The notes: generated by a model not told the origin, from the sequence alone. A DNA stretch of 64,000 nucleotides from Fibrobacteria bacterium (GCA_037447435.1 JBBIGR010000003.1:128001-192000), one strand, 5' to 3'. Counted from the stretch's first letter, positions 17,709 through 34,533 are shown. Numbers and translations: made by a program.

Positions 17709-19151
17709 TCATTTTTCATCCCGGATTTTTATAAATCCCATTAATATCATCGCCGGAATTGTCGTGAAAAATCCGATCAAAAACAAATTCATGTACCCCA
17801 TTTTTTCAACGATAATGCCGCCGAAGCCCCCGAAAACGGTAGAAAAAATTGACATGAACGCCGAGCCTATTGCATAGTGGCCGGCCTTGAATTCCTTTTT
17901 GCAGGTTTGCAAAATATAAACGATCAACGATGCATTTCCTAAACCTGCGGCAAGTTGTTCGTAACAATAAACACTGCCGATCGTAAGCAACCCTGATGTC
18001 GTGGTCGCGAGCGGCCTGTGCCAGGCAAGCCAGACATAGGCAAGGATATTGAGATTCATGGTCAAGGTGAGAGGCCAAATTGCCTTTTTTAGCCCTGTTT
18101 TCTTTATCCATAACCCGCCGATTGTGGTACCTGCAATCGAACCCAAAAGACCGACCAAACCGCTCAGCCATGCAAGTTGGATATTTGAAACAAGAAGGAA
18201 TCGTTTCAAAAATGGGGTTCCCATTGAAAAAATCACTTCATCACCGATTTTGTAAAAAATTATAAATACCAGACTCAAAGCTATGCCGGGTTTTGCCTGA
18301 CCAACTAAAACCGCCAACAAGCCGAATAAGCCGAACGCCAGTGCCTGTATCGGGTCATGCTTGACAAGCGTTACGGTTATAAACACGGCCAGTCCCCCCA
18401 AAAGTCCGCTGACAAGTGCGACACCCGATCGTTTTTGAGATATTTCCAAATATGAGGCAAAAGAGGTCATGAAATCGTTTATCACGGTCTTGACATCGGC
18501 GGAAACCTTTTTTGCGGTTTCGAATACAGGCAATGAAAAACAATGATACAAAGCGAATATTCCCATGGTGATTGACGCTGCGGCAAATCCATAGCCCCAG
18601 GCATTATACATGTTGAGTGCAGATGCTTTTTTCGCCATAGTCCCAACACTGAAAATGATCCCGAATTTCGCAACAACCAGGGCGAGTCGATAGGCAAATA
18701 CCCGGTATCCCGTATATGCAGCCTGTTCCTTGGCTTCGGTGATGCCTTCCATATAATAGCCGTCAATGACAATGTCGTTTGTCGCAGACAAAAAGGCTAA
18801 CGCAATAAAGAGGAAAACCAAAATCGAGGTGGAAACTGTGGGGTCGGCACTTTTACTTGCTGTAAAGCATAATACCGATACCCCGGCAGTCAATATCGTT
18901 ATGATGATCTGGACCAAGGCCATCCAGCCCTTTTTACTTCCAAAAATATCGACCAGCGGTGCCCAGAGGAACTTGAGGTTCCAGGGAATGCCGAGAAAAT
19001 TCAAATACCCTAGATATCGTTCCTTCATGCCGATGTCGGTAAAAAAAACGGATGACATCATTCTGACAATACCGAATGGAAACCCTTCGGCAAAGTATGT
19101 GGTAAAACACCAAAATGAGGGCTTTGAGAAAAGAGATTTTTTTTCGGGCAT
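17709..19151 (-). CDS. ampG: AmpG-like MFS permease (muropeptide transporter family)
   Basis: YFAEGFP, PWNLKFLWAPLVD, SATNDIVIDGYY, FYKIGD, GHYAIG motifs; ~12 TM. Confidence 0.8.
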   Translation of the reverse strand: MPEKKSLFSKPSFWCFTTYFAEGFPFGIVRMMSSVFFTDIGMKERYLGYLNFLGIPWNLKFLWAPLVDIFGSKKGWMALVQIIITILTAGVSVLCFTASKSADPTVSTSILVFLFIALAFLSATNDIVIDGYYMEGITEAKEQAAYTGYRVFAYRLALVVAKFGIIFSVGTMAKKASALNMYNAWGYGFAAASITMGIFALYHCFSLPVFETAKKVSADVKTVINDFMTSFASYLEISQKRSGVALVSGLLGGLAVFITVTLVKHDPIQALAFGLFGLLAVLVGQAKPGIALSLVFIIFYKIGDEVIFSMGTPFLKRFLLVSNIQLAWLSGLVGLLGSIAGTTIGGLWIKKTGLKKAIWPLTLTMNLNILAYVWLAWHRPLATTTSGLLTIGSVYCYEQLAAGLGNASLIVYILQTCKKEFKAGHYAIGSAFMSIFSTVFGGFGGIIVEKMGYMNLFLIGFFTTIPAMILMGFIKIRDEK

Positions 19152-20790: not shown

Positions 20791-20818
20791 AAAAAAGCCC
20801 GCAATTGCGGGCTTTTTT
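20791..20818. terminator. Bidirectional rho-independent terminator
   Basis: AAAAAAGCCCGCAATTGCGGGCTTTTTT perfect palindrome between convergent genes. Confidence 0.9.
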
Positions 20819-20843: not shown

Positions 20844-21884
20844 TTACTTGGCAATGAAAATATCGGGCCAGCGGTCGTTTCCGGTGTGGAAGGTGAGACG
20901 GGTTGCTGTCTTCTGGTCTGTTCCTATTTTCCATAAGTAAATTTCGTAATCGACGATGTCGTGTTCGTGGCCGTATTGTGTCGCTCCCCAAACCATGTAT
21001 TGGCCGTCCGGGCTGATTTGCGGGAAATATTCATGCGAGCGGCGGCCGGGAAGGTCCATGAAACGGAATTTCTTGTCGATGCCGAGCCCGCCGGGGACCG
21101 CGACCGGTTTGCCGTTTTCATCGATATCAAAGACAAGAACTTCGGTGCTGCCGTTGCCCTGGCCTTCATTCATACGGATGACACGTTTACCATTGGGAAA
21201 CCAGGAAACTTCACAGCCGCCACCCAGAAAATACCCTTCGTTTTTGGCAAAGTTCCAGATAACCGTATTGCGGGAGGTGCCGCGCAAGGTCATTGCAAGG
21301 GACTTGCCGTCCGGCGACATTTCCGGTTGCTGGGCAAACGTGTTTTTCTTATACGCTTTTTCAGCATCAAAAATTTCTTTTTCTTCTTTTGTCGTTAAAT
21401 TCTTTGTAAACACTTTCGATCCCCGGGCAAAAACGATTTCATTGCCCGACGGCCGCCAAGTGCCCCATACGGCATTTTCCGCAACTTTCGTTTCGCCGGT
21501 TCCGTCGATCTTGATCGTCCATATATCCCATTTCTCGAACATTTCAGCATCGTTTTCAGGGACAAAGCCCATTTTACTTCTTGTAAACAAAACGGTCTGG
21601 CCGTCCGGCGAAATACGAGGAAACCAATCAACGTTATTGGGGCTGACCGTAAGGGGTTTTTGGTCGGTACCATCGGCATTCATGATCCAAATATCGTGCT
21701 TTGTATTGGCGCGCGATGTCGACCATACGATTTTGCCTTTTATTGTTCCTTTTAACGCGTCCAGAGCCTTCTGTTCCGCTTTTTCCGGGGAGACCGCTGC
21801 GCCAAGAGGCGCTTCCTGGCCGAAGGCAATAAATGATAGAGAAACAAGAGCCGAGCAGGCGAGCATACCGAATCTTTTCAACAT
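20844..21884 (-). CDS. TolB-like (PD40 repeat) periplasmic beta-propeller protein
   Basis: Signal peptide; IWIMNADGT.Q..LT, FP.ISPDG (x2), PEMSPDGK, RLTF..G.D.WPD. Confidence 0.8.
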   Translation of the reverse strand: MLKRFGMLACSALVSLSFIAFGQEAPLGAAVSPEKAEQKALDALKGTIKGKIVWSTSRANTKHDIWIMNADGTDQKPLTVSPNNVDWFPRISPDGQTVLFTRSKMGFVPENDAEMFEKWDIWTIKIDGTGETKVAENAVWGTWRPSGNEIVFARGSKVFTKNLTTKEEKEIFDAEKAYKKNTFAQQPEMSPDGKSLAMTLRGTSRNTVIWNFAKNEGYFLGGGCEVSWFPNGKRVIRMNEGQGNGSTEVLVFDIDENGKPVAVPGGLGIDKKFRFMDLPGRRSHEYFPQISPDGQYMVWGATQYGHEHDIVDYEIYLWKIGTDQKTATRLTFHTGNDRWPDIFIAK

Positions 21885-21996
21885 GGAAACCTCGCTTCTA
21901 TTAAAACAAGTTTAAGATTAATAATTAAAGATTAAAAAGTAAAAATTAAAGATAATCTTGAATCTTTAATTTTGAATTCGTATTCACGAGTGAAAT

Positions 21997-23994
21997 TTAT
22001 TTCGTATCCAAAGGCTGCCATAATTGGCTGTAATTAAATAAATCGCGCGACACCATCATGTAAATGACCACCCGTTTTTTGTCCAAAGCGTTTTTACGTG
22101 CCCGATAAAATTTATCCCGCACCAAGGGGCCGCCGCCCCAGCTGGTAACGATATCAACGGGAATTTGTGTTTGCGCCGCAATATGCGCTCCAACGCCGGC
22201 AGCTTTACAATCCACTAATTCAAAGACGCCGGTAAAACTGTCGCCGATGAGCATAACGGGCGCATCGGGATTGCCGCCTTTAAAAGCCGCACCGTCGGGA
22301 GTGAATACCCGTTGCGCGGCAAGTTCCACGGCGTTAAAGGAGGTTTTGTCGGCTTCCGCAAGTTTGTCGACTATGTCGCCCTGGCGCAAAAACGTCGTGT
22401 CTTTGACCGTGTACTTGACTTTAGGCACTTCGGAATACCAGGAATACGTCTTGATCCTGTCCGACAATGCTTGAGCCGCGATTGCCAGACCTCTGGATGT
22501 CCAATGCGTGTCGTGTTTTTGATACAGGGCTTCCTTGCTTTTCTCGTCATCCTTTTTTGCGGCCAAAAATGCAGGTAACAAATCGACGACTTCAACGCCG
22601 GCTGCTTGAATGTCCTTCAGCATTTTCCGGGCATAGGGATGGATTAATTCGTAATTGTCTTTCGGTGCATTATTCAAAGGCAATTTGTCGTAATACACAT
22701 CCGATTTATTGGGGATCGGGACAAATAAAAGGGATATGTTTTTGCTTTTAAGGATTTTGTTGAATTCGATGAGATGCGGTATCGGGTTTTTGTCCGGTGC
22801 CTGTAAAGACATGTCGCCGCTGTTCAGGTACGATGCTTCGCCCCTGAAAAACAGCCAATTATCCTTGCCTTTAAAACCCATTTGCGCCGCGGGTAATGCG
22901 TTTACATAAGAAAGAAGCGAAGCCCGGAACGGTTCGTCTTTTTTAGCCCAGGCCGGGTAATCGCCGTTGGTTTTAATTTCCATTTCGAAACGGGTATTGT
23001 TGTCCTTGAAATTTTTCGAGACCGCCGAGTCTAACACGTGGGGGACAGACCGGGCGGCAGGCGAAGTCGCTGCTTGCGCAACAGCGGGTTTTTCGGCTCC
23101 GAAATCGACGAGATACACGTTGAAAAGTTTTTTCCCGTACGGCGTACCGCGAATGACAACCAAAGGATTTGCAACGGTTTGGCCTTTGAGCTCCTTGACA
23201 ATATCTTTTTCGGTTTCAGGAGTCGGCCACTTTGATTGCCCCGTCATGTCGACGACATCGGTATTAAGTTTTGGGTACCAGTACGAAGCAAGAACATTGG
23301 CCCAATCAACGACCTGGTCTTTTGTAAGTATTGTTTTGCAATAATCGTTTTGTATCCACAAAAGCGCCTTTGCCAGTACGGTTTTGTCAACAGACGCCAG
23401 GTTCAGTTTACCGTATACTTCTTTGAATCCGTCTTTGTCTTCGTCGCCAATGGTAGGGTCTAAAAATTTGACCCATGGTTTAAATTCCACTTTGACCCAC
23501 AGCTCCGCCGATTCGCCGCTCCCATGAATATAAACGGCAGCGATTTCCTGATAGGGAATGAATATCGATTCATCGCCCCATTTATAACCGGCAATTTTAG
23601 CGACCACCTGCGCGATGGCATCGGATTTGGTTATTTCCCACAATTTGTTCGCAAGCGGGTCCCATGCCAAAGCATTTTGCTTTTCCGCATCGGTTAGAGG
23701 CGTTTGGGACAAAGTGGCGCATTGATTGATAAGAGCGCCGTTGAAGGTCATGTCGCCGATCCCCGGCTTTTTCGCCGGTTTTTTTGGCGATTGCGGCGCA
23801 GGGTCGAAGCGCACGGGATTTGCCGAATAGGCCGCATAATCGAGATTCGCTAGCGTCGGCACGGCAATGGACCGTATCATGACGCGCGACGTTACACGGT
23901 TATAATTTTTATTCACCTGTTCATAGGGTTTTGCGTTTACGAGCATTGCCGAACAAACAAGAAATGCAACAACAGCCTTTTTGTAATGTGACAT
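21997..23994 (-). CDS. AlgX/AlgJ-family SGNH-like O-acetyltransferase with ~300-aa extra N-terminal domain
   Basis: Signal peptide; GKDNWLFF, P.PNK..VY, DTHW, IGDSF (Asp-His-Ser triad). Confidence 0.8.
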   Translation of the reverse strand: MSHYKKAVVAFLVCSAMLVNAKPYEQVNKNYNRVTSRVMIRSIAVPTLANLDYAAYSANPVRFDPAPQSPKKPAKKPGIGDMTFNGALINQCATLSQTPLTDAEKQNALAWDPLANKLWEITKSDAIAQVVAKIAGYKWGDESIFIPYQEIAAVYIHGSGESAELWVKVEFKPWVKFLDPTIGDEDKDGFKEVYGKLNLASVDKTVLAKALLWIQNDYCKTILTKDQVVDWANVLASYWYPKLNTDVVDMTGQSKWPTPETEKDIVKELKGQTVANPLVVIRGTPYGKKLFNVYLVDFGAEKPAVAQAATSPAARSVPHVLDSAVSKNFKDNNTRFEMEIKTNGDYPAWAKKDEPFRASLLSYVNALPAAQMGFKGKDNWLFFRGEASYLNSGDMSLQAPDKNPIPHLIEFNKILKSKNISLLFVPIPNKSDVYYDKLPLNNAPKDNYELIHPYARKMLKDIQAAGVEVVDLLPAFLAAKKDDEKSKEALYQKHDTHWTSRGLAIAAQALSDRIKTYSWYSEVPKVKYTVKDTTFLRQGDIVDKLAEADKTSFNAVELAAQRVFTPDGAAFKGGNPDAPVMLIGDSFTGVFELVDCKAAGVGAHIAAQTQIPVDIVTSWGGGPLVRDKFYRARKNALDKKRVVIYMMVSRDLFNYSQLWQPLDTK

Positions 23995-24012
23995 TTTTAT
24001 AGATCCTTTTTA

Positions 24013-24095
24013 CGGAGAGACGCACGGCGGTGCGACTCTCATAAAATCGATTGTATTTTGCAAAGATACGAGACGCACCGCCGTGCGTCTCTCCG
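24013..24095. repeat. Inverted REP doublet (REPIN-like)
   Basis: CGGAGAGACGCACGGCGGTGCG (24013-24034) and its exact reverse complement (24074-24095). Each arm carries the GAGACGCAC-N4-GTGCG core also seen at 17641. Confidence 0.75.
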
Positions 24096-24116
24096 AGGAA
24101 ATAATACCTGGGCGGT

Positions 24117-25766
24117 TTACTTTCCCGCTACCTGCAGCGGAACGTCTTTCCACCCTTCTTCGCCAAACCTGAAATCGCGTTCAACCACTTCCCATACCAC
24201 CACTTTTTTGCCGTTTAGCAGCGATGCCTTTCGCGCGAGCGATTGGCGAACGAGCGTCGACGCGCCGCCGTCGTTGACAATAGAGGCAACCGGCTGCGAG
24301 AGTTCATAGGCGCAATGGGCTATCCATCCTGCGGAGCGAGGCTCGTCGGTCTGGTAAATGCGGGAGAAAGAGTCGCCCAAAATGAGAACCTGGGAATTCT
24401 TATAATCATCCTTGTAAAGGACCCGCGAGGTGGTGCCGGTGGCATCGTCTTTTGCAAGAGTGAATACCTGATAGCATTTTGTTTTTTCGGTGGGGAAGCT
24501 CATTCCCAAATCATGGATTTTAAGGGACGGCAGCGTTGTCATGACGCCGACGTCGCCATTACGTTCGATAACGACCGAATCCAATTCATACGGAGTCGTT
24601 CCCGGAGTATACCAGGGATATTTTTTAATGCGTTCCGCAATAACATGAGCCGCAAGCCTGGCACCGCGGGCGCGCCAATGCGTGTCTTTGGCAAGATACA
24701 GAGAATCGCCGGCAATCGCGTCGTTTTTGCGTTCCTGTGCAAATGCGGAAAACAAATCCACCGCTTCGACGCCGTTTTTGCCCAATTCCTGAATAATTTT
24801 CAGGGAATGGCTGAAAGTCCCTGATTTGTCGGGAGAGACTTTCGAATTAAGAATGTCGGGATAAATGCTGGCCTTGACAGGTATTATCATGACAAGGAGG
24901 TCTATGCCGCGCTGCTGCAGCTGGTCCTTGAATTTGACAATCGCTTTGATCGGATCGTCGGACAAGGGCTTGTCGTTCGGATCCACAATGATGGAACGTG
25001 GATCGCGTACCGAGGGGCGAACAAGGTAATCGACATCCGGTTTGTAAAAGAACCAGTTGTTGACGTCGCCGGGAACCGCTTTTTCTCCAAGGTCATCAAA
25101 CAAAACAAAACGGGTATACAACATTGCCGGACGAATCGCCGTGGCGAATACCGACGTGTTTTCCATTTCCTTTTCATAGGGCCTCAGATACAAATCGTTC
25201 CAAAAAATGTGCGGAATGTTTTTTGTCGCAAGCAGAGGAACGCTGACGGTTGTTTTCTTGGGGTTTTGCGCGATAAGGTCCGCGATTTGTGCCTGGATTC
25301 CGTGAACCGAAACAGTAAGGGAATCCGCTGAGGCACCGTTTCTTAGCGCAGTCAAAACATCCGAAAATCCCTGGGAAAGACTGCCGAGCTTTGCAAAAAG
25401 TTCAGTCGTCGTATCTGCTTTGACATGGCGGTTGATGGTCGACGCGGATTTTTTAATATCCGAAACCAAAAACAGCGCGTCGTCGGCGATCTGTTCCGCA
25501 GTGCATGATTCCCATTTTTTGTCGGGCGCTACCGACCGGGACTTATTGATTTCTGCGAGTAGATTCTCGGATTGCTTTTGCGTTTTAACCAAAAGCCCGT
25601 TTATTGCGTTCGCCTTGGAAAAAGGCGTGACAATCGCATCGACAACCAGGTCGAGCGCTTGTACCTTGTGGTATTTGACATATTCGACGCACCCCTGGAT
25701 GATCGGCACCGAATAAATCACTGCAAGGAAAAAAACGATAAAAACGATACTGTGTTTTCTATTCAT
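24117..25766 (-). CDS. AlgJ-like membrane-anchored SGNH O-acetyltransferase
   Basis: N-terminal TM, WFFYKPD, IPVKASIYPD, YL.KDTHW, GDV, LGDSFS, VVWEVVER. Confidence 0.8.
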   Translation of the reverse strand: MNRKHSIVFIVFFLAVIYSVPIIQGCVEYVKYHKVQALDLVVDAIVTPFSKANAINGLLVKTQKQSENLLAEINKSRSVAPDKKWESCTAEQIADDALFLVSDIKKSASTINRHVKADTTTELFAKLGSLSQGFSDVLTALRNGASADSLTVSVHGIQAQIADLIAQNPKKTTVSVPLLATKNIPHIFWNDLYLRPYEKEMENTSVFATAIRPAMLYTRFVLFDDLGEKAVPGDVNNWFFYKPDVDYLVRPSVRDPRSIIVDPNDKPLSDDPIKAIVKFKDQLQQRGIDLLVMIIPVKASIYPDILNSKVSPDKSGTFSHSLKIIQELGKNGVEAVDLFSAFAQERKNDAIAGDSLYLAKDTHWRARGARLAAHVIAERIKKYPWYTPGTTPYELDSVVIERNGDVGVMTTLPSLKIHDLGMSFPTEKTKCYQVFTLAKDDATGTTSRVLYKDDYKNSQVLILGDSFSRIYQTDEPRSAGWIAHCAYELSQPVASIVNDGGASTLVRQSLARKASLLNGKKVVVWEVVERDFRFGEEGWKDVPLQVAGK

Positions 25767-25839
25767 TGTATTAGTCCTCTTTGAAACTTTTCATTATTTA
25801 AAATCAATAAAATCCTGTTTGTTATCTCTTATGCTATGC

Positions 25840-27267
25840 TCAGAACTGGAAATATAAAAAGGGATTGAACGTTTGAGTGAACATACCGCAAATTGCCAAT
25901 AAAAACAGGACTGCGCAAACCGCCATTTTGGGTAAAGTCAGCTTTTTTACCCAATCATGGGCTTGTATCGGCTGTAATACGAGAATTGCGCACAATACCA
26001 TTTCAAAGATATGCCGGGGAGTAAATATTTGACTGCTCAGAAGCGCGGCAGACGCCACGGGTTTGACAACTCCGACCATGGATCCCCAGTATGCAAGGCC
26101 TTGCTTAAGATCCGGAGCGCGGAATACCACCCAACCAAACAGCACGAGAATATTGGTGATGACGATTTGAAGCCACACGGGTAACCAGGCATAGACGGTC
26201 TTTTTTCCAATCAGGCGTTCAAAAACAAGAAACAGTCCCTGATACAATCCCCATACTACGAAAGTGTATTTTGCTCCATGCCACAAACCGCAGAGGAAAA
26301 AGGTAAGACAAAGGTTGAAATAGGTACGGCCGTTGCCTTTTCTGTTTCCTCCCAATGCTCCTATGTATAGATAATCCATGATGAATGCGGACAAGGTCAT
26401 ATGCCATCTCTTCCAGAACATCTGAATACTGGTAGAGAGGTACGGCGCGTTGAAGTTCTTCGGAAACTCGATGCCAAGCATTTTCGCGAGTCCAACCGCC
26501 ATGTCCGAATAACCGCAGAAATCGAAATAAATCTGGAAATGATACGCAAGAATTCCCCACCATGAGTTTATCACGCCCGGATTATCCGCACCAAAAACCG
26601 CATCGGCAACAGCACCCGCAGAGTTGGCAAGAAGGATCTTTTTTGCAAATCCCAGCATGAAAATACCGAGTCCGGTTGTAAACTTTTCAACAGTATGGGT
26701 ACGGACGGCAAGCTGTTCAGCTACCGTGCTGTAACGAATAATTGGGCCGGCAATAAGGTGCGGAAACAAACCGATAAAACAGGAAAATGTTGGAAAATTG
26801 CGTGCGGGTTGTGCATCGCCGCGATACAAATCGATGGTATAACTTAATGCGACGAACGTGTAAAACGAAATACCCGAAGGCAGCAGGATGTTCATCACGT
26901 GGAAGTAATTTGGTCCTAAACCTAAAAGCCCCATGATATGGTTGACGTTTTCCATTGTAAACATGTAGTACTTGAAAAACAAAAGCAGTCCCATATCGCC
27001 GATGATGGCGGTCATGAGCGCGGCCTTTCGCTTCCACTGATCCTGGTTCGGTTTTGTGATGATTTTTCCGCAGACATAATCCCAGGTGGTGGACGCAAAC
27101 ATGAGCACGACAAACCATGGAACGAGCCAGCCGTAGAATATGTAACTGGCAATGGTTATCCAGGTATTTTTGGGATAAAGCCCTTTCCACTGAAACGGCA
27201 AAAGGTAATAAATAGCAAAGAAAATCGGCAAAAAGTAGAATAAAAATATATGCGACGAGAAAACCAT
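25840..27267 (-). CDS. algI: AlgI-like MBOAT O-acyltransferase
   Basis: MVFSS..FLF.FLP, GISFYTF, FPHLIAGPIIRY, QIYFDFCGYSDMA.GL, NFNAPY, FWKRWHMTLS, GLWHGA, NPFLYFQF. ATG at 27267 follows GAGGAG. Confidence 0.93.
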   Translation of the reverse strand: MVFSSHIFLFYFLPIFFAIYYLLPFQWKGLYPKNTWITIASYIFYGWLVPWFVVLMFASTTWDYVCGKIITKPNQDQWKRKAALMTAIIGDMGLLLFFKYYMFTMENVNHIMGLLGLGPNYFHVMNILLPSGISFYTFVALSYTIDLYRGDAQPARNFPTFSCFIGLFPHLIAGPIIRYSTVAEQLAVRTHTVEKFTTGLGIFMLGFAKKILLANSAGAVADAVFGADNPGVINSWWGILAYHFQIYFDFCGYSDMAVGLAKMLGIEFPKNFNAPYLSTSIQMFWKRWHMTLSAFIMDYLYIGALGGNRKGNGRTYFNLCLTFFLCGLWHGAKYTFVVWGLYQGLFLVFERLIGKKTVYAWLPVWLQIVITNILVLFGWVVFRAPDLKQGLAYWGSMVGVVKPVASAALLSSQIFTPRHIFEMVLCAILVLQPIQAHDWVKKLTLPKMAVCAVLFLLAICGMFTQTFNPFLYFQF

Positions 27268-27379
27268 AATTAAATACTCCTCGGGTTGTGTCACCCCTAC
27301 GCAGAAGGCCCCGATAAAATCGTGATCTTCTGGGTAGGGGATAAAGTCAAAGGCCTTCTGGAAAAATGCGTTCTAAAAA

Positions 27380-27904
27380 TTACTGTGCAAGGTCGGTTCT
27401 TACCGCGAAATATTTATCGAGGTTAGAGTCCGTGTATTCATCCTCAACCGCGTCCTTCCAGACTTTATCTATAGGCTTGATCAATGTCAGTTTGTGTTTG
27501 GCGCCAACGTCGAATTTGTCCGCATTGCCTGCCACGCATTTTTTCATCGCGTCTTTGATTTGAGCCCGGGGAATAAGCGGATTATACTGGCCCACGAGAA
27601 TGTCTTGTTCTTTATAGGTACCTTTGACGACGGTGAGTACGCGGTATTTCATGACGTACACATAATTGTACAGATCGTTCGGCGCGAATTTACCGGGAAT
27701 TTCGGTAATGCGTGCGACCACAACAAGGGTATCGTTTGTTTTCGAAGTCGCCGTTGTTTCTTTTTTAGCAACGGGCGCAGCGGTTGCTTTGTCGGTTTTT
27801 ACGGCCGGCTTTTTTGCGGCCGGAGAATCGGCCTGGGCAAAACATAATGAAACGAATGCTGCGCTGCAAAGCAGTCCTTTACATATGGTGGAAATGGGCT
27901 TCAT
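27380..27904 (-). CDS. Secreted hypothetical protein (Lys/Ala-rich linker + small beta-rich domain)
   Basis: AGGAGG RBS, signal peptide, co-directional with the MBOAT gene; no family recognised. Confidence 0.7.
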   Translation of the reverse strand: MKPISTICKGLLCSAAFVSLCFAQADSPAAKKPAVKTDKATAAPVAKKETTATSKTNDTLVVVARITEIPGKFAPNDLYNYVYVMKYRVLTVVKGTYKEQDILVGQYNPLIPRAQIKDAMKKCVAGNADKFDVGAKHKLTLIKPIDKVWKDAVEDEYTDSNLDKYFAVRTDLAQ

Positions 27905-27942
27905 GAAAACCTCCTAAAAAGGGATGATGGTTATTATAGAGA

Positions 27943-28842
27943 TTAAGTTCTTGGAAAAACGTTTTTTAAAAAAAGCGAAACCTTTACCGGCGCATACCCC
28001 AAATCGTTTTGCGCCTCTGCCGGGTCCAGGTTCGCATCCTGGGTAATGCCGCAAATAGTTTGCCGTGACAATACCGGTTTTGACTGTGCAAACTTCAAGA
28101 AAAATGCGATAACAAAACACAACCATACGGGAATATGCGCTATTTTCTTCTTTGTAAGTCCCATACAATCCAGGCATAACCGCGAAAAATCCTTTATCGA
28201 GACCGCTTCGCCTCCGCTGAAATTGTAGGTTTTCCCTATGGTCGTCTCATTGGAATGCAACGCAATAAGTCCTTTTATGATATCGTCGACAAAAACCGGG
28301 CGTTTGAGCGCGTTGCCGTTGCCAATGAAAGGAACGATTGGGAATTTTTTAAGATAATCGAGGTACATGTCGAATTCCTGCCCGCCCTGTTTTCCGTACA
28401 CCAGCGTCGGCCGTATTATGGTAAACCGCAATCCCGATTGTTTGACAATTGATTCTGCGGATCGTTTGGATAACGAATAAGGTGTCGGATTCGGATACAC
28501 GACCGATGCGCTTGACACATATATAAAATGATCCACGGACGATCGTACCGCTTCCGCCACGATGTTTTTTGTACCCTGTACATTGATCGTATCGAATTTC
28601 GTTTTGTCCGGTGAAATGATGATTGCCGCAAGATGATACACGGTTGTAACGCCGTCGCAAAGTCCGGCGCAGTCCTTTTTGTTACTTATATCGCCGTAGC
28701 GGATATCGCTGCAGAATTCGCGTATCCGTTCAACGGCTTTATCATTGGGTATGCAAAGCACCCGAATCCGCTGGCCCCTCTGCGCAAAATGCCTCACCAG
28801 CACGCTTCCCATTGCTCCGCATCCGCCGGTGATCAATATCAT
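27943..28842 (-). CDS. NAD(P)-dependent epimerase/dehydratase (atypical SDR, NDUFA9-like)
   Basis: ILITGG.G.MG, VYHLAA, YVSS, YSLSK, IRPTLVYG; ATGA overlap with the upstream GT2. Confidence 0.85.
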   Translation of the reverse strand: MILITGGCGAMGSVLVRHFAQRGQRIRVLCIPNDKAVERIREFCSDIRYGDISNKKDCAGLCDGVTTVYHLAAIIISPDKTKFDTINVQGTKNIVAEAVRSSVDHFIYVSSASVVYPNPTPYSLSKRSAESIVKQSGLRFTIIRPTLVYGKQGGQEFDMYLDYLKKFPIVPFIGNGNALKRPVFVDDIIKGLIALHSNETTIGKTYNFSGGEAVSIKDFSRLCLDCMGLTKKKIAHIPVWLCFVIAFFLKFAQSKPVLSRQTICGITQDANLDPAEAQNDLGYAPVKVSLFLKNVFPRT

Positions 28843-29570
28843 AACGTTTTGTACTTTCCCATCGCAAATTTCCCCATTACCAGTAATACCCGTAAACCAT
28901 AGGTCAAAGGGTTTAAATATGAAATTTCCCCCGCATAGCGAGTCGGTATCGGCATTTCACGGATATTTAAATTCCCGGTTTTGGCACAGGCTATGACTTC
29001 CAAATCAAAATCAAACGAAGAACTCAAGCGGTAAAATGGAATCGTGTTCAACGCATTTCTACCATAAAAAAGCATTCCGCTGTGGTAATCGGTCATTGAT
29101 AAATCGAAAACCTTATTTTCAAAGAACGTCAGAATTCTGTTTGCAATATATTTGTATAACGGCATTCCTCCGGATAACGCGGTTCCCGAAGCGATCCGGG
29201 AACCCTGAAGGATGTCGATGGATTCTTTCGACATTTTATTGACGAATTCGACGATGCATTCTGGCGGATACTGGCCGTCGCTGTGAAGGCATACCGCAAA
29301 ATCGCAATCGTCCTGCATGCAACGTACCAAACCTTCCCGTACCGTTTTTCCATACCCGCGGTTCCAACCAAAATGAATGCATCGAATCTTGTCATTAGCT
29401 TTTGCCAGAGCGTCGGCCGTTTCTTTTGTTGCGTCTTTAGAACCGTCGTCGATGATCCACACATGCTCGACGATATTCCATAGGTCGTCCGAAAATCTTG
29501 CCAAGAGGCCCGGAAGCGTTTGGGACGCATTATATGCCGGAATAAAAATTGAAATCCGGGAGTCAATCAG
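28839..29570 (-). CDS. GT2 glycosyltransferase, DPM1/ArnC-like (polyprenyl-phosphate glycosyltransferase type); probable non-AUG start
   Basis: In-frame ISIFIPAYNA lies upstream of the track's TTG (29504); IDDGS.D.T, NRGYG, HSDGQY, QGSR, D.HSG, FDLE, E.PIPTRY. GGAGG precedes CTG 29570 / ATT 29567. Confidence 0.85.
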   Translation of the reverse strand: MIDSRISIFIPAYNASQTLPGLLARFSDDLWNIVEHVWIIDDGSKDATKETADALAKANDKIRCIHFGWNRGYGKTVREGLVRCMQDDCDFAVCLHSDGQYPPECIVEFVNKMSKESIDILQGSRIASGTALSGGMPLYKYIANRILTFFENKVFDLSMTDYHSGMLFYGRNALNTIPFYRLSSSFDFDLEVIACAKTGNLNIREMPIPTRYAGEISYLNPLTYGLRVLLVMGKFAMGKYKTL

Positions 29571-30655
29571 ATGGCCTCCCGTTTTAAAATGAGACCGCCG
29601 TATTCCTTTATGTAAAAAGCCATGGTTGTTTTCAGAGCGTCCGCAAGCGGCGTTTCAGGATTCCAATTGAGCAAGGTCTTTGCCTTCGTGATGTCCGGAA
29701 TGCGGCGATCGGAATCTTCGTATCCCGGTCCGTAAAAGTCCTGCCCTGTCACTTGCTCGATCAGCGAAGGGCCTCCCGCACAATCGGGGCGGAGTTCTCC
29801 GTATACACGGATCATGAGATGGGCGAGGTCTTTGATTGTAATTTCATTGTCCGGGTTGCCGATATTGAAAATGTGGCGGTTTGCAATGTGGGGATTCGAA
29901 AGTATGGCCATGAGGGCATCGATAGCGTCGTCTATATAGGTGAAGCAACGGTAGTTTTTCCCGCCATTGACAAGCTTGAGCGTTGTACCGTTAAGCAACG
30001 CATCCATAAAACAGGCCAAAACGCGAGGGACGCCGTCGCCGTCGATTCCGGGGATAAAATCCATTCTCGGACCGATGAAATTAAAAGGCCGGATTATTGA
30101 ATAGGGCAGTCCGTGTTCGATGCCGTGCGCGTAAATTGCCCGTTCGAGCAATTGCTTTGCGCACGCATACGACCATCGTTGGGCATGGACGGGTCCCAAT
30201 ACAAGCGGCGTCGCATCTTCGATAAAAACATCGGTATTCGGATCAAACGGTTGCTGTGCGGCTGCCGAAACTGTTTTCCCGTACACTTCACAGGTGGAAA
30301 AATGGACCAGGTGTTTTTTAAGCTGTGAACATTTTTCAACAATCGAAAGAGGACGGACAAAATTGCTCTGTATCACTTCAAGCGGGATTGTGTTGTACAA
30401 AGACGGATTGCACAATGCCGCCAACGATACGACGATATCGCTTTTTTCAATGAAATCCGCGGTATCGCGACAAGAGTCGATATCGCCTTTTGAAAATAAA
30501 AATCGTGGATCGCTCAGGGGGGGTCTTATTTTAGACTCGTCCCGGTCTATTCCCAGGACGAGCCAATTTGTGGTCGATAGTATGCGCTCAACGAGATGCG
30601 AACCGATGAATCCGCCGCAGCCGAGAACGCAGATTTTGAGTTGTGACATACTCAT
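29567..30655 (-). CDS. UDP-D-apiose/UDP-D-xylose synthase (UDP-GlcA decarboxylase, AXS/UAS type)
   Basis: GCGGFIGSHL, LAALCNP..YNT.PL, HFSTCEVYGKT, QRWSYACAKQL.ER, RPFN.IGPRMDFIPGIDG..GVPRVLACF, HIFN.GNP.NE, FYG.GY.DSD.RIPD: long stretches matching plant AXS as I recall it. Start placed at MSMSQ (30655). Confidence 0.85.
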   Translation of the reverse strand: MSMSQLKICVLGCGGFIGSHLVERILSTTNWLVLGIDRDESKIRPPLSDPRFLFSKGDIDSCRDTADFIEKSDIVVSLAALCNPSLYNTIPLEVIQSNFVRPLSIVEKCSQLKKHLVHFSTCEVYGKTVSAAAQQPFDPNTDVFIEDATPLVLGPVHAQRWSYACAKQLLERAIYAHGIEHGLPYSIIRPFNFIGPRMDFIPGIDGDGVPRVLACFMDALLNGTTLKLVNGGKNYRCFTYIDDAIDALMAILSNPHIANRHIFNIGNPDNEITIKDLAHLMIRVYGELRPDCAGGPSLIEQVTGQDFYGPGYEDSDRRIPDITKAKTLLNWNPETPLADALKTTMAFYIKEYGGLILKREAI

Positions 30656-30683
30656 GGTATGAAATTTGGTTCTGCTGTCCTTT

Positions 30684-31370
30684 TTATTGTACGCTGAAAG
30701 TGCTGGATTTGTCAGAAAGCTGTAAATTGACATAATCTGCAATTTTGATCATACATTGAGCGCTTGGAAAGGCAAATGGCGCACCGGTCCCGGTTTCAGA
30801 ACCGATTTTCCAAGAATATGATGTCGTTGACACGTCGCTGATTGAACTCTTTAACATATCTCCGAACGTTTTCCCGCCATCCGTCGAAAGCAACAACCTA
30901 AGTGAAGATAATTTAGAAGGTGTATCTTTCCATGTGATGGTTACTGTCGAACCGTTGGTCAGTGTCTGCCCTGCAGTTGGCGATGTGATGACAAGATACT
31001 TAATTGAAAATAAAGCACTGACGCCGGCATCAAATGTGCCGCCATTATCTGCAACTTTTACCTGAAAACTATCGGTATAAGCAACGACGGGCACAACAAC
31101 CTTTGCGGAATTGCTATTGACCGGTACGACAGTTGCAAATTGCTGCCAACCAGCCCCTAAATTAAAATTATAGGAAAGAGTGGGGGTGGCAACCGACTGA
31201 GTCCAGGAAACAACGAGCGTGTCACCCGCGCAAACCTTTTGCGCGGCAACGGGCGCGGTGATGGTAATCGCGGTTTTGGCTGCGGTCGGGCTTGAATCTC
31301 CGCAAGACAATCCAAGATACCCCAGTGCAAATAGCGCTGAAACGTTTGCGAATAATATCGATTTTCTCAT
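30684..31370 (-). CDS. Lipoprotein with two Ig-like Ser/Thr-rich domains
   Basis: Lipobox LGLSC; two units of the type I...P...Q....G....I.W...L.LSTDGG.TF. Confidence 0.65.
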   Translation of the reverse strand: MRKSILFANVSALFALGYLGLSCGDSSPTAAKTAITITAPVAAQKVCAGDTLVVSWTQSVATPTLSYNFNLGAGWQQFATVVPVNSNSAKVVVPVVAYTDSFQVKVADNGGTFDAGVSALFSIKYLVITSPTAGQTLTNGSTVTITWKDTPSKLSSLRLLLSTDGGKTFGDMLKSSISDVSTTSYSWKIGSETGTGAPFAFPSAQCMIKIADYVNLQLSDKSSTFSVQ

Positions 31371-31393
31371 TTTTTTTGATCCTTTCGTTGACA

Positions 31394-32581
31394 TTAAAAT
31401 AAAAATGTTTTTAATCCAATAAATACGGACCAGCGGTGGAATATGTCATTCCAATCGGGCCCTCGAGACCAATCCTGCATCGGCTTTATATCATAGGGAT
31501 TTCCTGCCTGAGCATTTGTCGCAGAGGCTGTTTTCGCGTGGATAGGGAGATATGCTGCGATAAAAATCGGGAAATTGGATCGTGAGAATTCCAGACCATA
31601 GCACAATGTTGCATTCCAAACCTGATTATCGGGATCCGGCGCAGGATCATATGGCGTTCCGCTTTTAAGCGAAGGGATCCATGCGACTCCCATTGGAACG
31701 GAAAACATGACGCCGAAAGAATGAACAAAATCTTCCATTCCTTTATATCCGTAAAATGCAGAAGCCATCAGGCTCGGCGGCGTGTATCCGCCCAGATCAT
31801 TTTCACCGTATGGCTTGAAATAATAATAAAACCTGTTTTTCTCCGCATCTGTCATGAGATCTTTTTGCTGTTGGGTAAAATTATAATATTGGTTTTGCCC
31901 GTTGAAATTGACGGCAAAAGAATACGAATACACTATGTCGAGAAGAACCATGCTTTTGTCCGCATCGATTGTCTTTCCTAAGTCAAGGCTTAAGTTGTAG
32001 AGCCCGGAACCGAGTTGCAAACTGGTCGGAAGGTATTTTTGGGCTTTATCGGATCCAAAGGTCGTCGTATATCCGCCTGTGGGAAGTGAAAGGGTGAAAT
32101 TATAACTTAAATCACCCGACAAGCCGAATGTGCCCATATAATCGACGCGAAGGTCGCCGAATCCGTTATTGATTATTCCCGTTGTCGGCGCATCGACCGT
32201 CGATGTCTGCAAAGACCCGGTTTTTTCAGCAAAAGGAACAGTCAATGCCAGCGTCGTCGTATACGTCGGTTTGATGCTGAAACGCAATTCAAGGGCTTTG
32301 GAGTTCGATTGTTTCGTTGCCGTTGATGAATACATACCTTGAATGTCAAGAAGGCCGCCGCTGACTCCTCGACCGATCCATTTTGCCGTTGCACCGCCCG
32401 CTCCGCCGGATCCGCCCGCTCCGCAGCCGCCGACGCATGCCCACGGCGTCGTTTGTATTGCGACGCTTTTGGAGTGGTTGATGTGGGATAGTAGAAAAGC
32501 GGTCGCTATCGCAACGGAAACTCCTATAGTACCGTGCGACAATAAAGACTTTGCCCATATGTTTTTGGTGTTGATCTTCAT
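31394..32581 (-). CDS. Probable outer-membrane beta-barrel protein with CxxxC/Gly-rich N-terminus
   Basis: N-terminal hydrophobic segment, WACVGGCGAGGSGGAGG, G.GD....Y, LSLPTG, QLGSG, alternating beta-strands, aromatic C-terminus (FIGLKTFLF). Confidence 0.55.
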   Translation of the reverse strand: MKINTKNIWAKSLLSHGTIGVSVAIATAFLLSHINHSKSVAIQTTPWACVGGCGAGGSGGAGGATAKWIGRGVSGGLLDIQGMYSSTATKQSNSKALELRFSIKPTYTTTLALTVPFAEKTGSLQTSTVDAPTTGIINNGFGDLRVDYMGTFGLSGDLSYNFTLSLPTGGYTTTFGSDKAQKYLPTSLQLGSGLYNLSLDLGKTIDADKSMVLLDIVYSYSFAVNFNGQNQYYNFTQQQKDLMTDAEKNRFYYYFKPYGENDLGGYTPPSLMASAFYGYKGMEDFVHSFGVMFSVPMGVAWIPSLKSGTPYDPAPDPDNQVWNATLCYGLEFSRSNFPIFIAAYLPIHAKTASATNAQAGNPYDIKPMQDWSRGPDWNDIFHRWSVFIGLKTFLF

Positions 32582-32583
32582 TG

Positions 32584-33723
32584 CTATTTTCCTCCTATAT
32601 AAACATACGGTTTTGAAGTGCTGTTGAATTGGAGCAGTGCGGGTTTGACATTAAGGAGTAATGTCTTTTGTGTGGAAATCGATACAAGGTAACAATCATA
32701 CACAATAACATCGGTCGTCGTTGATTTTGTGGCCAACGCACAGAAAAAATTAGGCGAATTCGTCCATTTGGGACACTGCCATTCACCTGAGGAATAGCTC
32801 GGCAACATGGTTTCGAGGCTGAAAGAGTTAACGAGCGTATTAGTTGTGTCTGCAATAAAAACATACATGTGCTCGCCCGCGCCGTTTGCGATGGCGGTGG
32901 GCATATTCAGCATGTTTTGAGGACCGCCGATATTTAAAAACATCATCTGACCGATTTTGACGGAGTCGGGCGTCATCGATGGGTTACATGTTTGTAAACC
33001 CGTATTTATTGGGAAAAATTTTGAACTAGCGATATTATAGATATAGGCATTCGCGTAGCCGGTACAAACATATTTACCATCATACGACAATCCGCCGTAA
33101 AATGGAAAAGTGGCGATAGCCGTTTTTGTTCCGGACAATATTTGTCCCGCGGTTGAGTTGATTTGAACTTTATATGTATGCCGTGTCTTTAACGTGGTAT
33201 TGTCCGCATCGAGCTTGTCAGTCGTATCGGAATAGGTAATGAAAACATTATTTAAATTGTCTTTGAAAAAATGCGGATCGCTCGCCGGATCGTCGATTAA
33301 ATTGGGCTCTGCCGTCGTATCGAGTTTTTGACAATACGCGGCGGCATGTTTACTGTTTGATGGATCAATAAGGTAATAGGTAACAAGGTCCCCGTTTGGC
33401 GAAATAATCGGGCACCAGGCACCCCAGTCTTGCTTATCCGCGGGCCTTTTTAACAATTTTGGAGCAATTATCGAATCGGAAAAATTGACGAAATACAACA
33501 CTTGCGTTCCGCCCGGAATTGTTTTTGTATAGGCCAATTTTACATTGCTGGTTCCAACAAATGAAGTGAGGCTGTCTTTTGACACGAACGCATTTGCCGG
33601 CGGCGGCGGAATGGGTGCAATAAATTGAGTCGGCTTATACGGCCAATCGCTGCAGGAACTGAGAATGTAGCCCGCAAATGCGCTCAATATAAGCGCTAAA
33701 GTAATTCGTTTAAACGAAATCAT
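32584..33723 (-). CDS. Lipoprotein, TolB-like propeller resembling the Fibrobacter TIGR02171 paralogous family
   Basis: Lipobox ILSSC; P.ISPNG..V.Y, F.GGLS.DG....TG, QTCN.S, MFL..GG, H...FIAD, W..P.W. Start MISFKR at 33723. Confidence 0.6.
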   Translation of the reverse strand: MISFKRITLALILSAFAGYILSSCSDWPYKPTQFIAPIPPPPANAFVSKDSLTSFVGTSNVKLAYTKTIPGGTQVLYFVNFSDSIIAPKLLKRPADKQDWGAWCPIISPNGDLVTYYLIDPSNSKHAAAYCQKLDTTAEPNLIDDPASDPHFFKDNLNNVFITYSDTTDKLDADNTTLKTRHTYKVQINSTAGQILSGTKTAIATFPFYGGLSYDGKYVCTGYANAYIYNIASSKFFPINTGLQTCNPSMTPDSVKIGQMMFLNIGGPQNMLNMPTAIANGAGEHMYVFIADTTNTLVNSFSLETMLPSYSSGEWQCPKWTNSPNFFCALATKSTTTDVIVYDCYLVSISTQKTLLLNVKPALLQFNSTSKPYVYIGGK

Positions 33724-34481
33724 GATTCCCCTTTCTTTAGGAAGAAACATTATTAAAGCTTGTACATACATGTTGCAAAGTGCTGTACCCGTTTCATAAT
33801 ATCGCAATTAACTATGGAGAAACGGGGTAAAAATAATATGCATCTGAAAAAAACTTGTCTGTGGTGGCCCCAAAATCACAGACGCGCTTGAACAATCATT
33901 CTAAAATAATATGCTCCATATACTAGATCAATAAACAAAAAAAAACTTTAAAAGAATTCAATTAATTAAAAAAATGCTATAAATTTCAATAGATTAGAGA
34001 TATGTATTACCCAAAAAATAATAAAAACAAAAAGTTTTCCCCCTAAAAAAAACGATTTTCGTCTCTTTGAGACTACATACCTATTTAATATAAAAAAGAA
34101 ATAAGAATTAATGGTTTTTTTGCTGTTAGTGTCGTGTTAGGAAAATCCGTGCCGCCAATTTGCAAACATTTCAACCTGAAATAAGAAAAATTATTACTTT
34201 GGGCGCAAAGATTCGGTCCTTTTAAGAAAAAGGAAATGTTTGAAGCGTTTAATTTATGTTTCATATTTTCCTTTCTTTTCAAAATCTGTTTTGTGTAATA
34301 AAACAATTTTCAGGATTCGTTAATAATATAGCTAAATTTATGGGGAATGTTATTTATCAAATCATCTCATTTATGTACAAAAGACATAAATGGACGGTTG
34401 GTCGCATTCCATTGTTCTGCAAAAACGGGAAAAAAAATTGATTCGGGTTTATAACGATCGGTACCGAGGGGTTATGTTAAA

Positions 34482-34521
34482 AAAGGAATTCCATTCATTA
34501 AAGAATAAATAGAATTCCTTT
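34482..34521 (-). terminator. Hairpin downstream of pdxJ
   Basis: AAAGGAATTC (34482-34491) / GAATTCCTTT (34512-34521). Confidence 0.4.
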
Positions 34522-34533
34522 ATCGAGTTTTTA

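Follow-up and report, generated by a model that had tools for sequence, protein, structure and literature searches.

Apiose, a branched sugar of plant pectin that binds borate, has long been regarded as a plant sugar, and the locus described here raises the question of why a bacterium should carry a gene of the UDP-apiose/UDP-xylose synthase (UAS) type, and why this gene stands in line with genes for glycosyl transfer and O-acetylation. The locus occupies positions 20844-33723 of a 64,000-nucleotide stretch from a Fibrobacteria bacterium (GCA_037447435.1 JBBIGR010000003.1:128001-192000; hereafter the window) and consists of eleven minus-strand open reading frames (ORFs), all co-directional, which we number g01 to g11 from the upstream end (Table 1). 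An earlier note on this DNA, made from the sequence alone, had suggested that the run makes a lipid-linked pentose and O-acetylates an envelope product. Based on the comparisons below we propose, with a probability of about 0.55, that the run belongs to one envelope-glycan system with two modules, the first providing lipid-linked apiose and the second O-acetylating the glycan that receives it.

The synthase and its partner glycosyltransferase

The best match of g04 in the PDB is Arabidopsis AXS1 (6h0n, 364 bits), followed by PbgP3 (236 bits), ArnA (225 bits) and human UDP-xylose synthase (UXS; 77 bits). In Pfam it matches the Epimerase family with 132 bits, and its GCGGFIG motif and the Thr, Tyr and Lys of a short-chain dehydrogenase/reductase (SDR) of the extended type line up with those of AXS1. 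Table 3 of PMC12820599 gives Lys189, Tyr185, Thr139, Tyr105, Glu141, Arg182, Arg341, Asn214, Cys100 and Cys140 as the AXS1 signature, and the available part of that paper assigns Ala and Ser to UXS and ArnA at positions 100 and 140, respectively. All 10 signature residues are present in g04, both cysteines included, whereas in PbgP3 Ala and Ser occupy the two positions. The AXS-type assignment made in the earlier note is thus borne out by both the closest match and the complete signature, and on the strength of these sequence comparisons g04 is predicted to make UDP-apiose from UDP-glucuronic acid (UDP-GlcA). None of the 44 homologues encoded next to a GT2 gene departs from Tyr185 or Lys189, and position 139 is Thr in 41 of these and Ser in three. 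The genome holds two genes of the UDP-glucose/GDP-mannose dehydrogenase family. Further afield, in a delta-proteobacterial metagenome-assembled genome, a myo-inositol oxygenase gene (MIOX, 331 bits; L073:7103-7882) lies about 2 kb from a GT2-UAS pair, which hints at glucuronate salvage feeding the synthase there.

The next gene, g05, encodes a GT2 protein (Pfam, 74.5 bits) whose top NCBIfam matches are PpgS, PgfS, the dolichyl-phosphate hexose transferase DPhHxTase, AglJ and ArnC, and whose top PDB matches are structures of DPMS, ArnC and GtrB; these agree with the DPM1/ArnC-like kind proposed previously. The PpgS profile, with 226 positions, is close to g05 in length. Its scores lie far under every curated cut-off, and g05 constitutes a separate subfamily of the polyprenyl-phosphate GT2 group. 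Its H95-S-D97-G-Q99 segment aligns with the DAD-LQ..PPE region of DPMS and ArnC, with His, invariant in 21/21 sequences, in place of the first Asp, and the motif H95-x-D97-G-Q-Y-x-P-E is invariant among orthologues.

The synthase and the glycosyltransferase genes are joined at an unusual junction. No ATG, GTG or TTG precedes the first beta-strand of g05 (DSRISIFIPAYNA), and the longest canonical ORF, which begins at 29504, is N-terminally truncated. The start is likely the CTG at 29570, which overlaps the g04 stop as CTGA and stands 4 nt after a GGAGG (window 29564-29580). Eight of 21 loci share this CTGA junction, those listed with it being L021-L024, L026, L028 and L038, and other relatives start with ATG. 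The arrangement, as far as the sequence goes, has the look of translational coupling at an uncommon start codon, CTG (or ATT). We also considered a programmed frameshift fusing g04 to g05 and rejected it, as the junction lacks a slippery site.

A scan with the GT2 alignment recovered the motif in at least 578 genome stretches, and neighborhoods were compared for the best 80 loci; in high-GC loci ORFs were chosen by length, so that mis-calls are possible. A UAS-type gene stands beside the GT2 gene in 23 of these 80 loci (24 with one cut by a contig end), and the record titles of the UAS-GT2 loci name about eight phylum-level groups: Fibrobacterota, Myxococcota, Planctomycetota, Verrucomicrobiota, Methylomirabilota, Lentisphaerales, Acidobacteriota and Deltaproteobacteria. 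PMT_2-type GT-C genes above the Pfam cut-off occur at most 3.5 kb from the GT2 gene in 6 of the 80 (L091, L102, L119, L128, L132, L145), with weak PMT_2 matches near GT2 in three more. In Sphingomonas arenae (L091) the order is PMT_2 GT-C, GT2, SDR fusion and GtrA, and in a Bryobacterales genome a PMT_2 GT-C gene is followed by a GT2-methyltransferase fusion. A polytopic protein is encoded within the same 3.5 kb in 39/80 loci, many of these being adjacent membrane proteins of 500-680 aa without a family; four of the six loci with PMT_2 above cut-off (L119, L128, L132, L145) are among the 39. Together with the family matches, the neighborhoods of distant HxDGQYPPE-type members support, without proving, a polyprenyl-phosphate acceptor for g05.

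Two further loci of this subfamily may be recorded. In a Lentisphaerae locus (L128:7712-12906) an MBOAT gene, a GT2 subfamily member and a PMT_2 GT-C gene lie within 5 kb, with no UAS. The only paralogue of g05 in the host genome (G000:C2:138446-139144; L150:5923-6678; 35% identity) overlaps a PAP2 phosphatase gene and adjoins genes for an MsbA-like ABC transporter and a DUF1854 protein; this locus is probably a second lipid-phosphate-linked glycosylation unit.

The third gene of the sugar block, g06, encodes an SDR scoring 90 bits with 3Beta_HSD and 84 bits with Epimerase in Pfam, with 3wj7, NDUFA9 and NSDHL as PDB neighbors. Its GxxGxxG motif, Ser111, Tyr122 and Lys126 are invariant in 14/14 sequences.

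Association with the acetylation genes and a candidate membrane transferase

The remaining core of the run is an acetylation module. The MBOAT protein g08 (NCBIfam DltB 139 bits, under the cut-off of 375) has His298 (in RWH) and His339 (in WHG) invariant in 19/19 sequences. Of the two AlgX-like proteins, g09 (hereafter ALGX1) matches AlgJ (4o8v) and AlgX (7ula) in the PDB and has Asp361, His363 and Ser466 invariant in 19/19 sequences, and g10 (ALGX2) has Asp495, His497 and Ser586 invariant in 14/14. The catalytic residues are thus intact in all three proposed acetyl-relay proteins. The N-terminal domain of g10, about 370 aa, has no usable match in the Atlas. The propeller g11 scores 49.8 bits with NCBIfam TolB, below cut-off, and its orthologues lie within the cluster in relatives, Myxococcota and Planctomycetota. 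The small secreted protein g07, whose presence had been recorded earlier, has no match in Pfam or NCBIfam. Its AlphaFold2 model (predicted local distance difference test score, pLDDT, 63) shows a folded core at residues 59-172 with weak Foldseek matches (NtA, E 7e-3, and CusF), and residues 58-174 are highly conserved; it is tentatively described as a predicted OB-like barrel and not as AlgF-like. An AlgF-like role finds no support, as there is no AlgF match.

How tightly are the two blocks tied? In the 20 loci of the host's order fetched around UAS, the UAS and GT2 genes are adjacent without exception, the SDR gene follows GT2 directly in 19, and the MBOAT gene lies within the locus in 16; the other four comprise two loci in which the contig stops immediately past the SDR gene and two split clusters. 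In the latter (G033 and G007) UAS-GT2(-SDR) stands elsewhere, and the series propeller, barrel, small protein, MBOAT, ALGX1, ALGX2(-PD40) is intact on another contig. Among 40 relatives, divided by a threshold of at least 400 bits into 24 with and 16 without a UAS orthologue, the MBOAT orthologue is present in 21/24 UAS-positive genomes (20 at 500 bits or more and one represented by a pair of fragments at contig ends, 60-61% identical) and in 0/16 UAS-negative ones, where the best match, 239 bits, is at the level of the host's own four MBOAT paralogues.

The association extends beyond the order. MBOAT, ALGX, SDR, PD40, UAS and GT2 genes occur together, in other orders, in two Myxococcota loci (L076, L077) and one from Planctomycetota (L078), and in two complete genomes from other families of Fibrobacterota (G274, G281) ALGX2 directly adjoins UAS. 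Three complete Fibrobacter-like genomes have a full-length ALGX2 homologue that is unlinked, lying about 330 kb from UAS in G189. Across the phylum, at a threshold of E at most 1e-70, 177/296 genomes (176/295 without the unpublished G253) carry a UAS-type gene, as do 108/172 of those of good quality and 40/70 genera, complete Fibrobacter-like genomes being among the positives. The test of linkage suggested in the earlier note has thus come out in its favor, with UAS-GT2-SDR linked to or co-occurring with MBOAT-ALGX in relatives and other phyla. Judged by synteny, by co-occurrence even where the cluster is split, and by recurrence in other gene orders, the two blocks are linked in function.

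The split cluster of G033 also pointed to genes that the run in the window lacks. There, a transglutaminase-like/TPR gene (TGL) and a 561-aa gene without a family fill the slot between the barrel gene and g07. We refer to the latter family as GTCx. Both genes have homologues within the cluster or next to it in G007, other classes of Fibrobacterota and loci of Polyangiales and Planctomycetota, and GTCx is inside the cluster in L055, L040, L075, L080, L077 and L078. In the host genome TGL and GTCx form an overlapping pair on contig 4 (GTCx at G000:C4:34870-36528). The system of eleven genes as first drawn is thus too small, the run of relatives having two more, a transglutaminase-like/TPR gene and a polytopic membrane protein gene. 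The remark that no GT-C is in the run holds for the host, and family searches of the window genes indeed returned no recognised GT-C or flippase, but this is probably a derived state, as the run of relatives includes GTCx.

GTCx is found in 20/24 UAS-positive relatives, three of the four misses being genomes 73-80% complete, and in 1/16 UAS-negative ones. In that one (G017) the contig begins inside ALGX1 and continues ALGX1-ALGX2-TGL-GTCx-PD40, so that the upstream part may be unassembled, not absent. Among the 14 GTCx loci fetched, PD40 is a direct neighbor in 9 and TGL in 9, with TGL at 1.4 kb in one more, and ALGX2 precedes GTCx/TGL in all three loci that reach far enough. The older order was likely ...MBOAT-ALGX1-ALGX2-TGL-GTCx-PD40, from which the window's genus moved TGL-GTCx away. 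The protein has at least nine hydrophobic segments, its C-terminal part, about 150 aa, is soluble, and Asp31 is invariant in a D-x-D-I/L-F/W-W-H-L..GRE loop that follows the first segment. GT-C enzymes typically cross the membrane many times, carry an acidic motif in their first outer loop and end in a soluble domain. All GTCx homologues are named hypothetical. With its GT-C-like layout, GTCx is our best candidate for the membrane transferase.

A second candidate, ranked after GTCx, is a GT-C+TPR family (G000:C45:3172-4752), which reaches 100 bits or more in 15/24 UAS-positive and 0/16 UAS-negative relatives, with one 60-bit match (G031), and has homologues near GT2 in five loci (three Verrucomicrobiota, one Polyangiaceae and one Planctomycetota). 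Its copies number 21 in G007 and 26 in G033, the genomes with detached UAS-GT2, and one to five in other relatives. About twelve PMT_2-like genes are present in the host genome.

A proposed pathway and its alternatives

We propose the following course of events. The synthase g04 would convert UDP-GlcA to UDP-apiose, with UDP-xylose as a by-product, and g05, translationally coupled to it, would load the pentose on polyprenyl phosphate at the inner membrane face; we place it on this carrier at the cytoplasmic face because HxDGQYPPE members elsewhere adjoin GT-C and GtrA genes. In what is the weakest step, g06 might oxidise or reduce the nucleotide- or lipid-linked pentose. After flipping, GTCx (or the GT-C+TPR family) would move the pentose to a periplasmic or surface glycan or glycoprotein. 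The MBOAT protein g08 would pass acetyl groups over the membrane to g09 and g10, which would O-acetylate the pentose-bearing product; g07 and g11, as periplasmic proteins, and the transglutaminase-like protein would assist. In Fibrobacterota the propeller g01 and the barrel g02 may handle the outer-membrane step.

Several findings weigh against this proposal. Cys140 is replaced by Ser in 25/44 of the GT2-adjacent homologues of g04, most of those of the host's order among them. The GT2 protein g05 falls below every curated cut-off (best PpgS, 52 against 370 bits), has HxD instead of DxD and has no transmembrane segment. GTCx has no Pfam or PDB match; an hhalign comparison with nine PMT_2 proteins gave a weak probability of 7.8% (0.4% for an MBOAT control) and comparisons with two single GT-C proteins gave 0.1%. 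The GT-C+TPR family reaches no more than 15 of the 24 UAS-positive relatives. Two recognised GT-C proteins were tried as partners and set aside: the ArnT-like one (G000:C5) does not follow UAS in its distribution, its strong matches (at least 280 bits) being confined to the window's own family and one UAS-negative genome, and those in three other UAS-positive relatives (110-200 bits) being at the level of paralogues; the YfhO-like one, which stands with the only GtrA of the genome (G000:C42), is unspecific, occurring in 38/40 relatives including UAS-negative ones. The cluster holds no AlgF-like protein, polymer synthase or flippase, and the rest of the window encodes no polymer synthase either. 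Finally, the relatives are not independent samples and the UAS-negative ones are mostly from two families with small genomes, for which reason we regard the change of gene order across phyla as the stronger argument for linkage.

The alternative that survives best retains the architecture and changes the sugar. Here g04 would make UDP-xylose or a UDP-4-keto-pentose, as do Ralstonia U4kpxs and the C-terminal domain of ArnA, and g06 would reduce or epimerise it, to yield lipid-linked xylose or L-arabinose. Such a reading would give g06 a clear role, and public naming lends it some weight: g04 exceeds the curated cut-off of NF008872 (302.3 against 294 bits), and the NCBI naming of its relatives follows this family, whereas JGI calls such proteins UDP-apiose/xylose synthase, which exposes a naming conflict for these enzymes. 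AXS enzymes also release UDP-xylose, and XpXylT of Xanthomonas pisi uses the UDP-Xyl formed by XpUAS, as the available part of PMC6193724 has it. Moreover, position 100 is Ala in 6/44 homologues, from Verrucomicrobiota, Methylomirabilota and Acidobacteriota. Against this stand the far greater similarity of g04 to AXS1 than to PbgP3 or ArnA, its pair of cysteines where ArnA, UXS and PbgP3 have Ala and Ser, and the retention of Cys100 in 37/44 homologues, with Cys100 present in all 37 from Fibrobacterota, Myxococcota, Planctomycetota and delta-proteobacteria examined; in addition, g06 is of the NDUFA9/3beta-HSD kind and not GalE- or ArnA-type. We therefore hold a sugar other than apiose to be unlikely for the run in the window. 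None of the six Ala100 loci has an MBOAT gene in the fetched stretch, and three of the four from Verrucomicrobiota have a GT-C+TPR gene; because Ala100 homologues occur in loci without MBOAT, apiose-type and xylose-type versions of the system may both exist.

A different view dispenses with the lipid carrier and the GT-C enzyme: g05 would be an ordinary cytoplasmic glycosyltransferase making a glycolipid, which g06 modifies and the MBOAT protein acylates. The HxD motif and missing membrane segment of g05 fit such a role, as do the nearest solved relatives of g06, NSDHL and NDUFA9, which act on or sit at lipids, the failure to find a recognised GT-C or flippase in the window, and the profile comparisons that did not show GTCx to be a GT-C enzyme. 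However, the best family matches of g05 are all polyprenyl-phosphate transferases, the similar-length PpgS among them, members of its subfamily adjoin PMT_2 GT-C and GtrA genes, and its gene is accompanied by that of a polytopic membrane protein and by a periplasmic set, so that we consider a glycolipid product distinctly improbable. Lastly, it is very unlikely that the sugar block and the acetylation/outer-membrane block are unrelated and merely side by side in this lineage, for although they are separate in G033 and G007, ALGX2 is far from UAS in Fibrobacter-like G189 and many loci have UAS-GT2 with no MBOAT within 10 kb, the MBOAT orthologue is confined to UAS-positive relatives, the blocks are linked in another order in Myxococcota and Planctomycetota, and ALGX2 adjoins UAS in G274 and G281.

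Returning to the two-module system with lipid-linked apiose, we may extend it, as a tentative generalisation, to at least four phyla that would decorate their envelope with apiose by way of polyprenyl-phosphate-apiose, with GTCx as the transferase, MBOAT/AlgX proteins acetylating and, in Fibrobacterota, the propeller and the FapF-like barrel serving export. Our literature search found no paper on lipid-linked apiose, with apiose and 'prenyl phosphate' appearing jointly in a review only, and none on Fibrobacter and apiose; this agrees with the statement of the earlier note that no described polyprenyl-phosphate-apiose pathway was known to it. The bacterial work found, in the available parts of PMC5607165 and PMC6193724, covers a few synthases, no conserved operon and one GT90 apiosyltransferase. 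The tie between an AXS-type synthase and a lipid-carrier-type GT2 thus offers a concrete and testable pathway, with a lipid-linked pentose absent from the literature searched, a candidate new family of membrane transferases and new partners for MBOAT/AlgX proteins. If apiose is indeed displayed on the surface of degraders of plant-wall fibre, this would be relevant to adhesion, to the binding of borate and to plant-wall mimicry.

Layout of the locus and comparison with known systems

A gap of 2 nt separates g01 from g02, g02 and g03 overlap by 1 nt, 28 nt lie between g03 and g04, g05 overlaps each of its neighbors by 4 nt, and the spacings from g06 to g11 are 38, 85, 73, 122 and 112 nt. The eleven co-directional genes with short junctions reported in the earlier note are therefore confirmed, with 122 nt as the largest gap, and the assignments given to all eleven hold in family, structure and language-model comparisons. 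The arrangement goes beyond chance, its gene order being found again in relatives. The terminator claimed after g11 is visible in the sequence as a hairpin with a T6 tail; a consensus terminator scanner did not list it. The region upstream of g01 is likely the promoter region of the run and has promoter-like hexamers at 33861-33833 and 33778-33749, which are consensus matches only. Within the run, a promoter-like site (10-of-12 match, 30686-30715, minus strand) lies inside the end of g03, just ahead of g04; together with the hairpin in the g09-g10 gap it may mark internal regulatory points.

Table 1. Features of the run and its borders, with positions in the window
Feature	Position	Strand	Length	Basis
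g01, lipoprotein with PD40/TolB-like beta-propeller	32584-33723	-	379 aa	Signal peptide, language-model neighbors
g02, predicted 12-stranded outer-membrane beta-barrel channel	31394-32581	-	395 aa	AlphaFold2 and Foldseek
g03, lipoprotein with Kre9/KNH Ig-like domains	30684-31394	-	236 aa	Pfam PF10342, 37 bits
g04, UDP-apiose/UDP-xylose synthase-type extended SDR	29567-30655	-		PDB, NCBIfam and Pfam matches, signature residues
g05, small soluble GT2, polyprenyl-phosphate glycosyltransferase type	28839-29570	-	~243 aa	Pfam, NCBIfam, PDB
g06, NDUFA9/3beta-HSD/HpnA-like SDR, 4-nt overlap with g05	27943-28842	-	299 aa	Pfam, PDB
g07, small secreted protein, predicted OB-like beta-barrel core	27380-27904	-	174 aa	AlphaFold2, Foldseek
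g08, MBOAT acyltransferase	25840-27294	-	484 aa	Pfam MBOAT, 86.7 bits
g09, membrane-anchored AlgX/AlgJ-like SGNH protein	24117-25766	-	549 aa	Pfam ALGX, 103 bits
g10, secreted AlgX-like SGNH protein	21997-23994	-	665 aa	Pfam ALGX, 99.9 bits
g11, periplasmic PD40/TolB-like beta-propeller	20844-21884	-	346 aa	Pfam PD40, 55.7 bits
AT-rich region upstream of g01, without ORFs	33724-34533	.	810 nt	ORF listing and sequence
Hairpin in g09-g10 gap	24070-24091	-		9-bp GC-rich stem, weak T tail
Intrinsic terminator-like hairpin after g11	20791-20818	-		GCCCGC-AATT-GCGGGC and T6, read directly in sequence

The three genes at the head of the run concern the outer-membrane side. The ATG of g01 at 33723 is preceded by AAAGGGGA, and the longest ORF extends to 33807. 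The protein has no match in Pfam or NCBIfam; its signal peptide carries a lipobox-like LSSC, its language-model neighbors are PD40/TolB clusters (0.93) and hypothetical lipoproteins of Fibrobacterota (0.95), and a counterpart stands upstream of the barrel gene in relatives. The barrel gene itself is found upstream of UAS in 16/20 loci of the order. Its product g02, also without a match in Pfam or NCBIfam, ends in F, and its AlphaFold2 model (pLDDT 72) has FapF (5o68; E 2.6e-12, TM-score 0.73 on the target), the COG4313 channel 4rl8 and NanC as top Foldseek matches. It is accordingly a predicted FapF-like 12-strand barrel, the 11% identity to FapF signifying likeness of fold and not membership of the family. 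Residues 46-60 of g02 (window 32380-32450), in the disordered N-terminal part, form an invariant PW..GGCGxGGSGG segment with a conserved Cys, about 20 residues past the signal-anchor helix, which is an atypical position for a lipobox. The third gene, g03, was rightly identified as encoding a lipoprotein but is a genus-specific insert: its orthologue occurs in only 3/20 loci (L021, L022, L024), all of the same genus.

The genes flanking the run are unrelated and comprise pdxJ, a divergent polysaccharide deacetylase gene and genes for a DUF2341/LamG protein, GH5 enzymes and a DUF4423 protein. Two genes downstream of the cluster, past a convergent gene, lies one for a membrane protein of the major facilitator superfamily type (17709-19151, minus strand) with a weak match (25 bits) to the acetyl-CoA transporter family Acatn; its position may be coincidence. 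The window is from contig 3 of a 5.05-Mb genome in 96 contigs, and the NCBI names of close homologues place the relatives of this genome in Chitinivibrionales, Fibrobacterota. Among sequencing data sets the stretch was traced to one DNA study and to no RNA run. The four further MBOAT paralogues of the genome (on G000:C10, C25, C27 and C67) are 37-39% identical, and no AlgX-like gene occurs in the genome outside the cluster. In-frame stops, which could stem from error, pseudogenes or recoding, were seen in a GTCx homologue (L084:5956-7566), in the MBOAT orthologue of G018 (C7:29807-31249, one TGA) and in the MBOAT paralogue at G000:C27:56599-57990 (one TGA).

The proposed system is reminiscent of the Arn pathway (ArnA, ArnC, ArnE/F, ArnT), which likewise places a UDP-GlcA-decarboxylating extended SDR beside a GT2 that loads undecaprenyl phosphate, followed by a membrane transferase acting on the periplasmic side, and g05 matches ArnC structures. 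Unlike ArnA, with Ala and Ser, g04 has the AXS1-type Cys100 and Cys140; the run has no aminotransferase, formyltransferase or deformylase, g05 lacks the transmembrane helices of ArnC, no ArnT orthologue tracks UAS, and an MBOAT/AlgX module has been added. With the Xanthomonas pisi operon (XpUAS, XpApiT, XpXylT) it shares an AXS-type synthase gene that overlaps the next, glycosyltransferase gene. As described in the available parts of PMC5607165 and PMC6193724, XpApiT is GT90-like and XpXylT a pfam13704 GT2, both use nucleotide sugars directly, only eight bacterial UAS were reported with no conserved operon, and the operon is exclusive to X. pisi; here, in contrast, a GT2 of the PpgS/DPM1 type is the partner, and conservation of the cluster extends over families and phyla.

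The second module resembles the AlgI-AlgJ-AlgF-AlgX machinery, to which the O-acetylation systems PatA/PatB and WssFGHI are also related, in combining an MBOAT protein with periplasmic SGNH-like proteins of the AlgX/AlgJ domain that carry Asp-His-Ser. It differs in having two large AlgX-like proteins with extra N-terminal domains, in lacking AlgF and a polymer synthase in the cluster, and in its partners, which are PD40 propellers and a FapF-like 12-strand barrel in place of AlgK and AlgE. A further parallel for the first module is three-component periplasmic glycosylation, in which a GT2, a small flippase and a GT-C enzyme cooperate, as in GtrA-GtrB-GtrC, CsbB-GtcA-YfhO and mycobacterial PpgS with its GT-C. 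The Sphingomonas locus with PMT_2, GT2, SDR fusion and GtrA is of this very kind; the UAS-type clusters, in contrast, have no recognised GT-C or GtrA adjacent, and it is the GTCx family that stands in that place.

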